Source: Escherichia coli (lineage in GTDB: Bacteria; Pseudomonadota; Gammaproteobacteria; Enterobacterales; Enterobacteriaceae). Taken from it: 49,226 nucleotides of DNA. Made by a program: the position numbers. Where the stretch lies: the NCBI RefSeq assembly GCF_003334765.1, contig NZ_QOWT01000030.1. One strand, written 5' to 3'. Positions 3,001 through 15,000 of the stretch are shown here, piece after piece (positions within the stretch are counted from its first letter, which is position 1; each line of letters starts with the position of its first letter).

Positions 3001-6000
3001 ACTGATCAGGCTTTCGTTAAGATGCGGCGGGATGAGGTCGTGTTGCGTGAGTTGCAGCAGTACAAGATCGCCCGCAGAGGGTAAGCTACAGCGCGAGATC
3101 CTAGGTTTCTATCAGGGATTCGGCAAAGCGGGCGCAGTTGTCGACCAAGGCGGTGAAATCTATAGTGGCATTATAAGGGAACGAACAATAGATCGAGTAA
3201 ATCGCAGTCAGGGACAAGGATTGTAGTTTATAGAGAAGTCTCCTGTAACGGTTTTCAGGAGGCTAATTCCGACGCCTGATTTTGCAGGCGCGGAGGGAGA
3301 GGATACTGCGACCATTAATCCGCCACAAAGCATTTACGTGCATAAATCACGCAGTCAGATCCGACTCTCACTGTAGTTCTTGAACCTGATACCACATTTA
3401 GCTAATTTAGCTGACTTATCCAGTATACCAGTGGTTGCCATGAATATGAATGAAGACGAGATTAATCGTCATATCCGGCAGGCACTTTCCAGTGCGCCGC
3501 GTAACCAGTACACCGTCGAGCTGCACCTGCAAATGATTAAATATGCCGACGAACTGGAACACATTACGGCAAAAGCCTTTTGCGAAGGCATCGGTCTGAA
3601 TACCGATCTGCTGTAACCGACTTACGGCACATTATCGCGCAAAACGAGATATTTAATGGCTATCAAAAAAACCGAACTCTATTCTTCCCTGTGGGCAAGC
3701 TGCGACGAACTGCGTGGCGGGATGGACGCCAGCCAGTACAAAGACTATGTACTGACCCTGCTGTTTATGAAGTACGTTTCCGATAAGTATAAAGGCGATC
3801 CTTACGGGATGATCGTGATACCCAAAGGAGCCAGCTTTGACGATATGGTTGCGCTGAAAAATGACAAAGAGATCGGCGACAAAATCAACAAAATCATCCA
3901 CAAGCTGGCGGAAGAGAACGGCCTGAAGGGCGTCATCGACGAAGCCGACTTTAACGACGAAGATAAGCTCGGCAAAGGCAAGGAAATGATTGACCGCCTG
4001 AGCAAGCTTGTCGGTATCTTTGAAGGGTTAAATCTCTCCAGCAACCGGGCCGAAGGCGACGATCTGCTGGGCGATGCCTATGAATATCTGATGCGTCACT
4101 TCGCAACCGAATCCGGTAAGAGTAAAGGGCAGTTTTACACTCCAGCGGAGGTGTCACGTATTCTGGCGAAGGTGATTGGTATTACTCCCGATACTCCGCA
4201 AGATGCAACGGTTTATGACCCAACCTGTGGCTCTGGTTCGCTGCTGTTGAAAGTGAATGATGAAGCCCGGCGCGGACTGTCGATTTTCGGCCAGGAGATG
4301 GATAACGCTACCAGTGCGCTGGCGCGGATGAACATGATTCTGCATAACAATGCCACCGCGAAAATCTGGCAGGGCAATACGCTGAGCGATCCGCAGTGGA
4401 AAGAGGCGAACGGCAAACTGAAAGCCTTCGATTTTGCCGTGGCGAACCCGCCTTTTTCCAATAAAAACTGGACCAACGGGCTGACGCCGAAAAAAGATCC
4501 GTTTGAACGCTTCGGCTGGGGTATTCCGCCGGAAAAAAACGGCGATTATGCTTTTTTGTTGCATATCATTAAAAGCCTGAAAAGTACCGGCAAAGGCGCG
4601 GTGATCCTGCCCCACGGCGTACTGTTTCGCGGTAACGCCGAAGCGAATATCCGTGAAAATCTAATCAAGCAGGGCTATATCAAAGGCGTTATTGGTTTGC
4701 CAGCCAACCTGTTTTACGGCACCGGCATCCCGGCGTGCATCATTGTGATTGATAAAGAGCACGCCCACAGCCGCAAAGGCATTTTTATGATCGACGCCAG
4801 CCGGGGCTTTATCAAAGATGGCAACAAGAACCGCCTGCGTAGCCGAGATATTCACCGCATTGTGGACGTGTTCAACCATCAGCGAACGGTACCTGGCTAC
4901 AGCCGGATGGTGCCCTCCAGCGAGATCGCCGGAAATGATTACAACCTGAATATTCCTCGCTATATCGAGAGCGGCGAGCCGGAAGATTTACACGATCTGA
5001 CCGCGCACTTACAGGGCGGTATTCCGGCACGCGATGTGGATGCTTTGCAAGATTACTGGCGGGTATTCCCTGCCCTGCGCAACGTGCTGTTTGCTGACGA
5101 CCGTCCCGGTTACTGTCGGGCGCAGGTGAACGCGCAACAGGTGAAACCGACCATTCTGGCGCATCAGGAGTTTAAGGATTTTGCCACCCGCAGCCTGCTA
5201 CCGTTTAAAGCGTGGGTGAAAGAGGCAAGTCTGGAAGAGATTCGCAAAGGTGATAAACCCAAAGCGCTAATCCACGATATCAGCGAAATGCTATTGGCGC
5301 AGTACGCCAACAGTGAGTTGCTGAACAAATACAGCGTGTACCAGATCCTGATGGATTACTGGACTGATGTCATGCAAGACGATGTGTATGCGATTATGCA
5401 GGATGGCTGGCAAGCCGCCGCGCAAATCCGCGAGCTTCAGCCGGTGAAAGGCAAAGATGGCAAAAACATCTGGAAAGAAACGCACGATTTCGAGTTTACC
5501 AAACGGCGCTACAAGGCCGATGTGCTGCCCCGTTCGCTGGTGGAAATTCGCTGTTTCCCGGAACTGCTGGATGCGCTGAACCGCGCGCAGGAGCGCAGTG
5601 AAGAAGCCAGTCGTCAGCTAGTGGAATTCATCGAGGAGCAGGCAGGTGAAGAGGATCTGCTGGCCGAGGCGAAGAACGATAAAGATAAGGTGACGCAAAA
5701 GCTGGTGAATGCCCGTCTGGCACAGTTGAAGAAAACCACTGCCGGCCCAGATGAGCTGGCAGTGCTGAACCGCTGCCTGGCGCTAATTAAGGCCGAAGCC
5801 AGTGCGAAAAAAGCGCTGAAAGCCGCACAAGAAGCGCTGGATCGGGCGGTGTTTAAACATTATCCCACGCTGGATGAAGCAGCGATTAAAACGCTGGTAG
5901 TGCAGGATAAGTGGCTGGCAACGTTGCAGGCAGGGATCAAGGCGGAGATTGAGCGTATTACCCAGCAACTGGCGTCGCGCGTAAAGGAGCTGGAAGAGCG

Positions 6001-12000: not shown

Positions 12001-15000
12001 GTGTAAACAGGTCATCCGCCCGGAGCAAACCGCCGGAGCGTGCTACCCTGCCACCATGGATACACAAGCAAAGCGTGCCTTCTATGATAACTTCGGCCAC
12101 GACGAGGTACTGGCGACCCGCATAGATACGACGATTCGCTATACCAAAAGGGCAGAGTGGATTGGCGATCGTTTTAAAGAACGGGAAATTGCCAACGCAT
12201 TACGTGAAGAGACCGCCAGCTATAATATTGATATTGATGAGGTGATAGCGCTTGCCCGTCAGCAGAAGGAATATCACTGATGCCAATCATGCAAATAGGC
12301 TCGTTACACTTGCTGGTCAACCGTAAGGCGATTAAGAATCTGCATATCAGCGTGCTGCCGCCTGATGGCAAAGTCCGCGTTTCAGCGCCGGAACATATGA
12401 CAGAGACGGCGATTCGTATGGCGGTTGCTTCACGCTTTCGCTGGATCAGAAAACAGCAGCAGGATTTCGCCAGACAGCCTCGTCAATCAGAGAGGGAAAT
12501 GGTCAGCGGAGAGTGCCACTATCTTTGGGGCCGAAGATATCGCCTACTTGTGATTGAGCGTCACGGGCGTCACGAAGTAAAAGTTGCGGGAAATAATAAG
12601 CTCCAGCTTTATGTTCAACCGGGAACCCGTGATGAAAATAAGGCATTGGCGTTAAATGAATTTTATCGACATGAACTAAAACAGCAGGTGGCTAAGCTTC
12701 TACCTGAATGGCAGGACCGAATCGGTGTTCCCCTAACATTCTGGGGCATCAAAAAGATGAAAACCTTTTGGGGCACCTGTAACACTACAACAAAACGAAT
12801 CTGGCTCAATCTGGAGCTAATTAAGAAGCCGCCGGAGTGTCTGGAGTATATTCTGGTGCATGAACTGGTTCATCTTCTGGAACGTCACCATAATGCTCGC
12901 TTCCGGTTGCATATGGATCGGTTTATTCCTGACTGGCGTGAGCGTCGGGATTTGTTAAATAATATGCCGTTAGCGTTTGAGGCATGGGAGTATTGATTGA
13001 GCCTGTAACTGTTTTTTGTCCATAAATTAACCTTCATTTGATGCTGGATTGAACATATCAAAATCAGACAATTACACAAATCTATGTACAGGCTCAACTC
13101 CTGCCATGGAATGTGGTTCTCACCAATAAATAAGCGTCAATACGGTGCTCCGTTGACGCTTACCATTGTGGTTGTTGTGCGACAGATATTGCTATTCGGC
13201 CCATATCCCAGATAAAACCCGCCAGCTCACGTGCAACAGCAACAATTGTAATATTGACATTCTTTCCTTTGGCCTGAAGTTTTCGATACCTCTTACAAAG
13301 CCTGAGTTGAGCATCCCATGCTCTGTCAATGACGGGGCAGGGTAAATTTTCCTGCCTTTTTTGTATTGCCGGACTGATGCGTGCCGGATGCCGGTAACTC
13401 CACGCAGCCTCGACCAATAGCTTTCTGGCATAGCTGTTTCCGGCTTTGGTAATGCTGCCCTGATGTCTGCTTGCGTATTCCGCTCTATTCGATCACGGAT
13501 TGGCATCGAAGTTCGATCAGCGATTCGCATCCATTCGATCAACCGGGAACTTAACTTTTTCTACCGCTTTTTAACTCGTTTTTTCGCTGCTTTCCACTGT
13601 CGGGGGATTTTTCCTCAGGGACTCTCCCTGAAGGACCACTCTGTGTGAGTTATGTACCAGTCTGTCCAGGATGGCATCTGCTGTTGTTGGGTTCTCCATC
13701 AGACCATGCCATTTATCTACCGGGAACTGGCTTACCACTATCGTGCTGCTTTGTCCGTAACGATCCTCTGTGATCTCCAGAAGGTCATTACACTGGGCGT
13801 TACTTAACTGTTCCAGCCCCAGATCGTCCAGGATTAGAACCTGTATTTTTTGCAACTGTTTCAGATATTTCAGCCAACTGCCATCAACACGTCCCTGAGC
13901 CAACTGTTCCAGTAATCGCCCGGTTCTACAGTACCGGACGCTGTATTTCTGTCGACATGCCTGTTCGCCCAGCGCATTGGCTATCCAGCTCTTACCGCAT
14001 CCTGTCGGACCGGTTATCAGTAGGTTTTTCCTGTGGATTATGTAGTGGCCGTTCAGCAGTTCCCTCATCTGTTCAGCCCGCAGACCTCTTGAGGCCGGAT
14101 AACGCAGCCCTTCCGGTGTTGCCTGATATTTCAGGCAGGCATTTTTTCTCAACCGTGCCACACGACTGTTTTCTCTGCTCAGAAGCTCGTCATCAACCAG
14201 CAGTGTCAGCCTTTCCTCGAACGACAGTTCGTCGTAAGTCTGAGGCGTTTCCCGTTGCCGTATCAGGCTCCCGGCCATCGCCGGGAGTTTCAGTTGGGTC
14301 AGTTTGTTTAACAGATTATCACTCATACGGTTGTTCCTTCTGTCAGTGGTAGTAGCCAGGACCACGCAGGTTTTCATGCTCTGAAGCATATGCCGGATGT
14401 TGTTCGCCCTGGCGGGATAACGGAAGCTCAACGTTATCCCGATGATGACGCAGCAGATTGTCGATAAAGCGTCTGTCCGGGGCGTTATAGTGCAGGGCAA
14501 CGTAACAGGCCTTTTCCAGCCGTTCCGGGCCGTATTTTTTCTGAAGTGCCGCAGACCCAGGACTGCACGGTAAGCCAGCTCCGGATGGGGTTTGGCTTTC
14601 AGCATGGATTCAACCACCCGGCCTGTGGACGGACCTGTACGGTTTCCCTGCTCGATAAGGCGTTCCGGTGTCCATGTCCCATGCCGCCGGTGGCGTTCTG
14701 GCATGTGAAGCGGATTGGTTGTGTGTTTATATTCATGTGTGCTGCGCGGATGTTGCGCCACACACTGCCCCTTGTGCCAGAGCTGTACCACCGACTGCCC
14801 CACCTTCAGTGACAGACGCTGACCGACCAGTTCGTGTGGAACGGAGTACCAGTGACGGGCATATTCAACGTGGTAGTCAGGGCCAACCTTCACGGCTTTG
14901 TATTCCGTGTATTCATAAGGCTCCAGAGGCAGCGGAGAGAGTGCTGGTGCATCCAGCATGCGGAAGCGTTCTGCGCGGGTTTGATTACCGTATCCCTTCA

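Follow-up and report, generated by a model that had tools for sequence, protein, structure and literature searches.

The DNA analysed here, hereafter the window, is a 49,226-nucleotide (nt) stretch of Escherichia coli contig NZ_QOWT01000030.1 (assembly GCF_003334765.1) that carries a compact block of defence genes at positions 3656-12996. An earlier interpretation, made from the sequence alone (the sequence-only reading), described this block as a unit of six same-strand open reading frames (ORFs): hsdM, hsdS, darT, darG, hsdR and a gene for a small protein with an HExxH motif. All six are present there on the + strand, while the count of six genes has to be amended, since a seventh gene, rptR (3446-3616), and a promoter sit upstream. 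The block is a Type I restriction-modification (R-M) chassis with an embedded darTG toxin-antitoxin pair and a terminal HExxH gene coupled to hsdR (Table 1). Below, we describe this locus and its published counterpart, and provide evidence that its last gene, which encodes a YgjP-like zincin, is a partner of hsdR in bacteria and archaea; we propose that the zincin acts on HsdR.

Gene identities and operon layout

The three chassis proteins were identified by profile searches. HsdM scores above the cut-off of TIGR00497 (282.8 versus 242.75 bits), matches the PADLOC MTase_I model over its full length (1426 bits) and contains HsdM_N and N6_Mtase domains (E = 2e-103 for the latter), with the NPPF motif visible in the translation. 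Its residues ~445-812 (positions 4990-6094) form a C-terminal extension of ~370 amino acids (aa) that has no Pfam match. HsdS matches the PADLOC Specificity_I model PDLC03098 (E = 9.7e-127 over residues 9-447) and has the two target-recognition halves of a specificity subunit; its match to the NCBIfam equivalog is weak (36 versus 662 bits), as expected with variable target-recognition domains (TRDs), and GC content falls to 0.415 over the gene. HsdR exceeds the cut-off of TIGR00348 (546 versus 284.55 bits), scores 1633 bits with PADLOC REase_I, and combines a nuclease with a superfamily 2 translocase (HSDR_N, SWI2_SNF2 and T1R_D3-like domains). No Pfam model matches the C-terminal third of HsdR, whose last residues are a conserved ...QKEYH; the nearest solved relative of the protein, EcoR124I, is distant (E = 1e-35). 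Between hsdS and hsdR, the DarT ADP-ribosyltransferase and the macrodomain protein DarG are encoded as an adjacent pair with an ATGA overlap.

The sequence-only reading further proposed that the genes are packed with overlapping or nearly overlapping stop and start codons. With small corrections, the junctions are of this kind: three of the five overlap, by 1, 4 and 1 nt, and two are short gaps of 11 and 18 nt that contain Shine-Dalgarno sequences. The TGATG through which the last gene was said to be coupled to hsdR can be read directly, as a 1-nt overlap. Consensus promoter-like sites are no more frequent within the block than in shuffled sequence (13 versus 11.7 +/- 3.8), nor are terminator-like sites (18 versus 12.6 +/- 3.3), and none of these sites is positioned to separate the last gene. 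The only promoter-like match near that gene, at 12061-12088, is at chance level. We therefore rejected the possibility that a promoter or terminator of its own precedes the last gene, also in view of the 1-nt stop/start overlap, which is conserved across phyla.

Table 1. Features of the defence island and its control region, in window positions.
Feature	Position	Strand	Basis or remark
Island promoter and RptR operator region	3380..3422	+	promoter elements and TAGCTA site defined experimentally in Zhang et al. (PMC12255303)
-35 element TTGAAC	3380-3385	+	aligned to EPEC, LSU61 and O157 644-PT8
Functional 5' -10 box AGCTAATTT	3400-3408	+	aligned to EPEC, LSU61 and O157 644-PT8
6-bp RptR sites	TAGCTA 3399-3404 (intact); TAGCTG 3408-3413; TATCCA 3417-3422	+	sequence
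rptR deletion allele, 56 aa (79 at full length)	3446..3616	+	69-bp in-frame deletion
hsdM, Type I methyltransferase subunit, 812 aa	3656..6094	+	HsdM_N and N6_Mtase domains
hsdM/hsdS junction	ATG 6094	+	TGATG, 1-nt overlap
hsdS, specificity subunit, 446 aa from ATG 6094	6094..7434	+	alternative GTG start at 6088; PGAP start is ATG 6094
hsdS-darT junction	11-nt gap	+	AAGGGA in gap
darT, DNA ADP-ribosyltransferase toxin, 218 aa	7446..8102	+	NF048013, 262 bits (cut-off 150); PADLOC DarT
darT/darG junction	ATG 8099	+	ATGA, 4-nt overlap with darT stop
darG, macrodomain antitoxin, 355 aa from ATG 8099	8099..9166 (ORF opens at 8087)	+	NF048014, 451 bits (cut-off 250)
darG-hsdR junction	18-nt gap	+	AAGGAG and TTG start
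hsdR, restriction/translocase subunit, 1031 aa	9185..12280	+	TTG start, AAGGAG Shine-Dalgarno
hsdR/zincin junction	12280	+	TGATG, 1-nt overlap; AAGGA within the 3' end of hsdR, 9 nt upstream
YgjP-like zincin, 238 aa	12280..12996	+	PF01863; PGAP label 'M48 family metallopeptidase'

The locus corresponds to the published RRDM island

An island of seven ORFs, RRDM (RptR-RMS-DarTG2-M48), has been described in enteropathogenic E. coli (EPEC) E2348/69 by Zhang et al. (Nucleic Acids Res 2025; PMC12255303). In their work, E. coli carrying cloned RRDM was protected from five phages (Trib, Baz, TB34, lambda-vir and T7), a promoter was mapped ahead of the first gene, rptR, and the rptR product was identified as a repressor that binds TAGCTA repeats overlapping the -10 box. 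The block in the window is an allele of this island, and the system is therefore already known, because gene order (rptR-hsdM-hsdS-darT-darG-hsdR-M48), annotation by the Prokaryotic Genome Annotation Pipeline (PGAP) and protein accessions match those of Zhang et al., with HsdM, DarG, HsdR and the zincin 97-100% identical to annotated alleles and rptR present here as a deletion allele. Frequent embedding of DarTG within Type I operons had been remarked in 2016. By megablast, the block occurs in 247 of 5426 complete E. coli genomes at ~99% identity, where PGAP annotates M, S, DarT, DarG, R and an 'M48 family metallopeptidase' after a small 'HTH-like domain-containing protein', and an EPEC-derived genome in the collection carries exactly the published protein accessions.

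Alleles were compared with the EPEC proteins and with the annotated islands of LSU61 and O157 644-PT8. HsdM is identical to that of LSU61 (812/812 residues), HsdR is identical at 1028-1030 of 1031 positions to the LSU61 and 644-PT8 alleles, and DarG and the zincin each differ at a single residue from their EPEC counterparts (354/355 to WP_000634203.1 and 237/238 to WP_001122107.1, respectively). HsdS, by comparison, is 74% identical to that of LSU61 and 47% identical to that of 644-PT8 in otherwise near-identical islands, which implies a different recognition sequence for the window allele; together with the dip in GC content, this divergence looks like an exchange of TRDs. Relative to EPEC RRDM, the window island thus shares gene order, near-identical proteins, the -35 and 5' -10 boxes and flanking insertion sequence (IS) elements, while it differs in the 69-bp in-frame deletion in rptR, in having two rather than three ATTTAGCTA repeats, one of them mutated, and in its divergent HsdS.

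The last gene encodes a YgjP-like zincin

The sequence-only reading labelled the last protein as DUF45/M48-like, and only the first part of this label is borne out. The protein matches the Pfam family YgjP-like (PF01863, formerly DUF45) with E = 1.4e-61, its residues 25-228 covering positions 5-206 of the 207-position model, conserved HExxH included. SprT-like (4e-06) and WLM (0.03) match only weakly and Peptidase_M48 not significantly (E = 0.1), so that membership of the M48 group (Ste24/HtpX/BepA) has no profile match behind it and the PGAP label is a loose one. No family in NCBIfam, PADLOC or PHROGs matched the protein, leaving Pfam as the only collection that places it. The motif HELVHLLERHH (residues 194-204, positions 12859-12891) has the form HExxHxxxxxH; in an alignment of 75 sequences that share 35-89% identity with the window protein, H194, E195 and H204 never vary and H198 is retained in at least 90%.

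The protein, for which an AlphaFold2 model has a predicted local distance difference test (pLDDT) score of 95, consists of two parts, an N-terminal beta-rich domain without a solved relative and a catalytic domain of ~100 residues at the C-terminus. The catalytic domain resembles minigluzincins as well as SprT, Wss1 and SPRTN, whose zincin fold it has, and the best structural matches are all true peptidases. Sequence identity to SprT/Wss1/SPRTN and to the archaeal minigluzincins (selecase, abylysin, jannalysin) is ~20-24%, and the protein differs from these proteases in its additional N-terminal domain; no DNA-binding or zinc-ribbon modules were detected in it. We conclude that the last protein is a zincin whose closest solved relatives are true peptidases; the fold does not reveal its substrate.

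PF01863 is a large family, with 20,126 representatives (E <= 1e-3) after clustering at 50% identity, and its hsdR-linked form retains ~70% identity among E. coli, Vibrio, Methylomonas and Marinomonas. Some members of the sample described below have unusual architectures. In two Lachnospiraceae loci, L037 (9989-11875) and L047 (1265-3817), the hsdR-linked zincins (P0179 and P0219) are fused to a second HExxH domain, an IrrE-like Peptidase_M78, and P0219 also carries a Cro/C1-type helix-turn-helix (HTH). In a Zoogloeaceae metagenome-assembled genome (L066, 1079-2410), a single 443-aa ORF matches both HsdS and the zincin, which could reflect a gene-fusing deletion or an assembly artefact.

The zincin is linked to hsdR across bacteria and archaea

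The sequence-only reading took co-occurrence of the peptidase gene with hsdR across genomes as a check on a functional tie between the two. We scanned one genome per prokaryotic species for zincin homologues and retained 80 loci together with flanks of up to 10 kb, in which all ORFs were searched by phmmer with the window proteins as queries; 74 of these loci had enough upstream DNA to be assessed. In 46 of the 74, the gene immediately upstream, in the same orientation as the zincin gene, is an hsdR of the same family, a figure that may omit very divergent HsdR proteins beside distant zincin homologues, as these could escape a single-sequence search. The outcome of this check is strongly positive. 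In these 46 loci HsdR is ~1030 aa long, matches with E-values of 0 to 1e-119 and ends right at the zincin start: 40 of them have an hsdR-zincin gap of -20 to +3 nt, and in 18 the two genes overlap by exactly 1 nt (TGATG or TAATG). The linked loci span Gammaproteobacteria, Desulfobacterota, Nitrospirota, Chlorobiota, Chloroflexota, Cyanobacteria, Actinomycetota, Bacteroidota, Bacillota, Spirochaetota and Campylobacterota, and two are archaeal (L012 and L031).

Linkage follows relatedness to the window zincin. Among homologues at least 45% identical to it, 21 of 22 are hsdR-linked, while the 28 unlinked homologues are mostly no more than 44% identical. In a neighbour-joining tree the linked zincins form one large cluster, with one unlinked intruder, and a second small group made up of Campylobacterota and Clostridia, in which HsdM is of normal length; long HsdM proteins (~750-900 aa) are otherwise common to most hsdR-zincin loci, against ~495 aa in loci of the Campylobacterota type. 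Across 17 systems, the zincin diverges in parallel with HsdR (r = 0.92) and with HsdM (r = 0.89) in pairwise comparisons. This co-divergence shows long co-inheritance with the chassis, and is compatible with either HsdR or HsdM as the partner.

Searches from other starting points gave the same arrangement. In all three hsdR-centred look-ups (Morganella, Methylomonas and Shewanella) a PF01863 gene follows hsdR with a 1-nt overlap, even though the cargo differs. Within E. coli, hsdR and the zincin gene each match at >=95% identity in 250 records, and in one record an IS66 element cuts the zincin gene. What is conserved is thus a frame of the form M - S - [cargo] - R - zincin, with a joint between R and zincin that is uninterrupted throughout the sample. 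On the evidence of these gene neighbourhoods, the zincin is a conserved fourth component of one Type I family, tied to HsdR and spanning bacteria and archaea.

A tail of the form ...NQxEY precedes the HsdR stop codon in 30 of 33 family members (window 12250-12280; loci L002-L055). The zincin Shine-Dalgarno sequence shares codons with this tail (CAG AAG GAA TAT in the window), and because of this overlap the conservation of the tail may lie partly at the nucleotide level. These features bear on the possibility that the zincin is a maturation or assembly factor, which processes HsdR (or the long HsdM) or helps to assemble it, such that restriction needs the zincin. Strict linkage and coupling to hsdR fit this explanation equally well, the tail could be a processing or docking site, and HsdM has its unusual extension of ~370 aa. 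However, no Type I enzyme is known to require proteolytic maturation, EcoKI and EcoR124I included, and the tail may be conserved in part through its overlap with the next gene's Shine-Dalgarno. We regard a role in maturation as unlikely.

Linkage is independent of cargo and repressor

The space between hsdS and hsdR, occupied by darTG in the window, is elsewhere empty or filled by unrelated genes: an SMC-like ATPase with an SLFN/AlbA_2 protein, GmrSD_N with an AAA_15 ATPase, SoFic, PDC-S02 candidates or DUF262-type proteins. Nine loci (L004, L007, L011, L019, L028, L029, L042, L085 and L086) hold varied defence-type cargo in this gap, or sometimes in that between hsdM and hsdS, along with several family-less ORFs. 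The varied content of the slot agrees with the 'hotspot' remark of Zhang et al. (PMC12255303), and DarTG is an optional cargo of the Type I chassis.

This distribution bears strongly on the suggestion, made in the sequence-only reading, that the peptidase might regulate or process the embedded toxin. DarTG occurs near only one of the 46 linked loci (L015), where it lies downstream on the other strand and is not embedded; the remaining loci have unrelated cargo or none. Apart from the operon that they share in this island, nothing in our analysis favours a zincin that processes DarT or degrades DarG, and DarG already neutralises DarT both enzymatically and by binding, as work in 2016 showed. 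A protease for DarT or DarG was accordingly rejected on distribution, and we consider it the least probable of the explanations weighed here.

A second explanation that draws on the cargo is that the zincin is a latent guard or abortive-infection effector, which HsdR would hold inactive until a phage anti-restriction protein disables the complex and so frees it to cleave a host or phage target, or which would destroy the anti-restriction protein itself. PrrC, held by EcoprrI, provides a model for such an arrangement, and Type I loci do host second-line modules (DarTG here; SoFic, PDC-S02 or GmrSD-like systems elsewhere); coupling to hsdR would also supply the stoichiometry needed for sequestration. 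PrrC-EcoprrI and other genes embedded in hsd loci resemble the island in placing an extra defence module between hsdS and hsdR of a Type I chassis. They differ in that such modules are variable cargo within the slot, whereas the zincin is constant, lies outside the slot after hsdR and co-diverges with the chassis. Since, in addition, the zincin has no PADLOC or PHROG model and no toxicity has been reported, a guard function seems improbable, to about the same degree as maturation.

The linkage is equally indifferent to the repressor. RptR homologues (now Pfam HTH_73) are present in the gammaproteobacterial hsdR-centred look-ups and were found in none of the 80 loci, 21 of which reach at least 300 nt upstream of hsdM. 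This matters for a further candidate role, that of a derepressor protease which would cleave RptR on infection and thereby switch the island on. CapP cleaves CapH in this manner, and ImmA and IrrE cleave their repressors. The CapP-CapH, ImmA-ImmR and IrrE/PprI-DdrO pairs resemble RRDM in having a small HExxH protease beside a small repressor of a defence or stress operon, and the fusion of some Lachnospiraceae homologues to an IrrE-like domain and an HTH is in keeping with the idea. Against it, the zincin is intact (237/238) in the window, as it is in O157 644-PT8, even though rptR is disrupted in both, and the hsdR-zincin pair extends to archaea and Gram-positives, while reports of RptR come mainly from Gammaproteobacteria (PMC12255303). 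A derepressor is, in our assessment, a poor candidate. Because hsdR linkage persists whatever the cargo, and with or without RptR, we conclude that the zincin is a fixed partner of HsdR rather than of the toxin or the repressor.

A proposed role in restraining HsdR

Type I enzymes need restraint when host sites are unmethylated. The sole well-understood restraint is the action of host ClpXP on EcoKI-type HsdR, which does not extend to every family or host; most archaea, a group in which the present family also occurs, are not known to have ClpXP. As the best explanation overall, with a probability of roughly 0.8, we favour an RRDM allele with an HsdR-coupled YgjP-like zincin for which an action on HsdR is proposed. 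What that action consists of is a more tentative matter. Zincin-mediated proteolysis of HsdR, giving restriction alleviation independent of the host, is a serious possibility that we nevertheless place somewhat short of even odds. The broader proposal, that the zincin is a fourth component of a widespread Type I family which controls HsdR proteolytically and provides alleviation in place of reliance on ClpXP, goes a step further and is correspondingly a little more speculative.

Under this proposal, the zincin would be made in step with HsdR through translational coupling and would proteolyse HsdR, or restriction complexes stalled on DNA. Cleavage of unmethylated host DNA would thereby be limited while the system establishes itself or when DNA has been damaged, and such a self-encoded counterpart of ClpXP alleviation would allow the system to move among hosts that differ in their proteases. 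Proteins stuck on DNA are removed by SPRTN and Wss1, relatives of the fold, and ArdC is a precedent for a zincin domain aimed at Type I restriction. In restriction alleviation of EcoKI, ClpXP degrades HsdR, according to work cited by Zhang et al. (PMC12255303). The role proposed for the zincin is similar to ClpXP alleviation of EcoKI and EcoAI (Type IA/IB) in that HsdR-directed proteolysis would protect unmodified host DNA. It differs in the agent, as ClpXP is a host ATP-dependent serine protease encoded elsewhere, while the candidate here is a small, operon-encoded zinc hydrolase whose activity on HsdR we infer.

Several considerations weigh against this proposal. Linkage points to partnership with HsdR; whether the effect is one of inhibition, maturation or guarding, and on which substrate, does not follow from it. 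Transcription of the block as a single unit is suggested by gene packing and by the promoter mapped upstream. Phage defence was assayed for RRDM as a whole only, the last gene having never been deleted or studied singly (PMC12255303). In a spot check, ten neighbours of unlinked homologues were either housekeeping genes (RecB, DnaE, a non-ribosomal peptide synthetase, phosphoglycerate mutase, MarP) or had no family match, and since the divergent YgjP-like proteins (<=44% identity) are often in housekeeping contexts, the family is not intrinsically a restriction factor. The literature that we searched (YgjP/DUF45/COG1451/PF01863) contains no report of proteolytic activity for any YgjP-like protein, nor did we find in it a functional study or a biochemical report of hydrolysis for YgjP-like/DUF45 proteins; the two literature matches for 'DUF45' turned out to be to DUF450 and were discarded. 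E. coli YgjP is listed as a slow UTP pyrophosphatase in vitro, and if it is one, the fold may not act on proteins.

The last of these points leads to the alternative that the zincin is a non-proteolytic hydrolase of a small molecule or nucleic acid, such as a nucleotide pyrophosphatase, or a passenger without a role in restriction. A hydrolase of this kind has to be set against the best structural matches, which are all to true peptidases, and a passenger is hard to reconcile with linkage by stop/start overlap across phyla, archaea included. We think this alternative doubtful, and no more probable than maturation or guarding. The preferred reading remains that of an HsdR-coupled zincin with a proposed action on HsdR.

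The window carries a repressor-deleted allele

The first gene of the island is altered in the window. The deletion junction in rptR lies at 3590/3591, and in the full-length allele the missing segment is flanked by GGTCTGAA direct repeats. About residues 50-72 are lost, which include the recognition helix alpha4 (Glu58, Ser60, Lys61) as well as Leu69 and Ala72 at the dimer interface; Zhang et al. show or argue that each of these is necessary (PMC12255303). The operator has changed as well: EPEC has three ATTTAGCTA repeats and the window two, the second of which is mutated. Only one of the three sites matches an accepted variant, against the two or more TAGCTA-type sites expected for control by a functional RptR. 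The same deletion is present in O157 644-PT8, where PGAP calls rptR a pseudogene while all six remaining genes are intact. Of 249 E. coli genomes that have the 5' part of rptR, 213 have the 69-bp segment, which leaves ~36 with the deletion. Because the recognition helix is lost and a single operator site is intact, the island is probably derepressed, that is, constitutively expressed, in the rptR-deletion strains, the window included.

Surrounding region

The island is part of a mosaic region. Segments at 13571-15658, 15897-23909, 25661-26551 and 46164-48254 contain an IS21-type element, an aerobactin-like siderophore cluster with its receptor, an IS3 transposase and an Iha-like TonB-dependent receptor; the IS21-type element has one 695-aa ORF that matches both IstA and IstB. 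Such surroundings are typical of an E. coli/Shigella pathogenicity island. None of the complete E. coli genomes in the collection covers at least 80% of the first 25 kb of the window. A stretch of low GC content at 28262-33299 on the - strand contains three adjacent genes, for a ParB-like protein of 212 aa, a phosphoadenosine phosphosulfate (PAPS)-reductase-like protein of 425 aa with a weak BrxP match, and a superfamily 1 helicase of 893 aa that is MkoA/MkoC-like (E = 1e-43). This trio may be a second defence module.

Implications

While the RRDM island itself has been described before, our analysis identifies its last gene as a pan-prokaryotic hsdR partner that depends on neither cargo nor repressor, and shows that the window carries a repressor-deleted allele. 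Natural rptR deletion alleles, present in ~36 E. coli genomes including one O157 strain, constitute ready-made strains for studying derepression of the island, and the hsdS-hsdR slot may be a place to search for new defence genes. If the proposed role is correct, a system-encoded HsdR protease would explain how these Type I systems are established safely after horizontal transfer, and it would provide a first defined cellular role for the large DUF45 family (~20,000 clusters at 50% identity).

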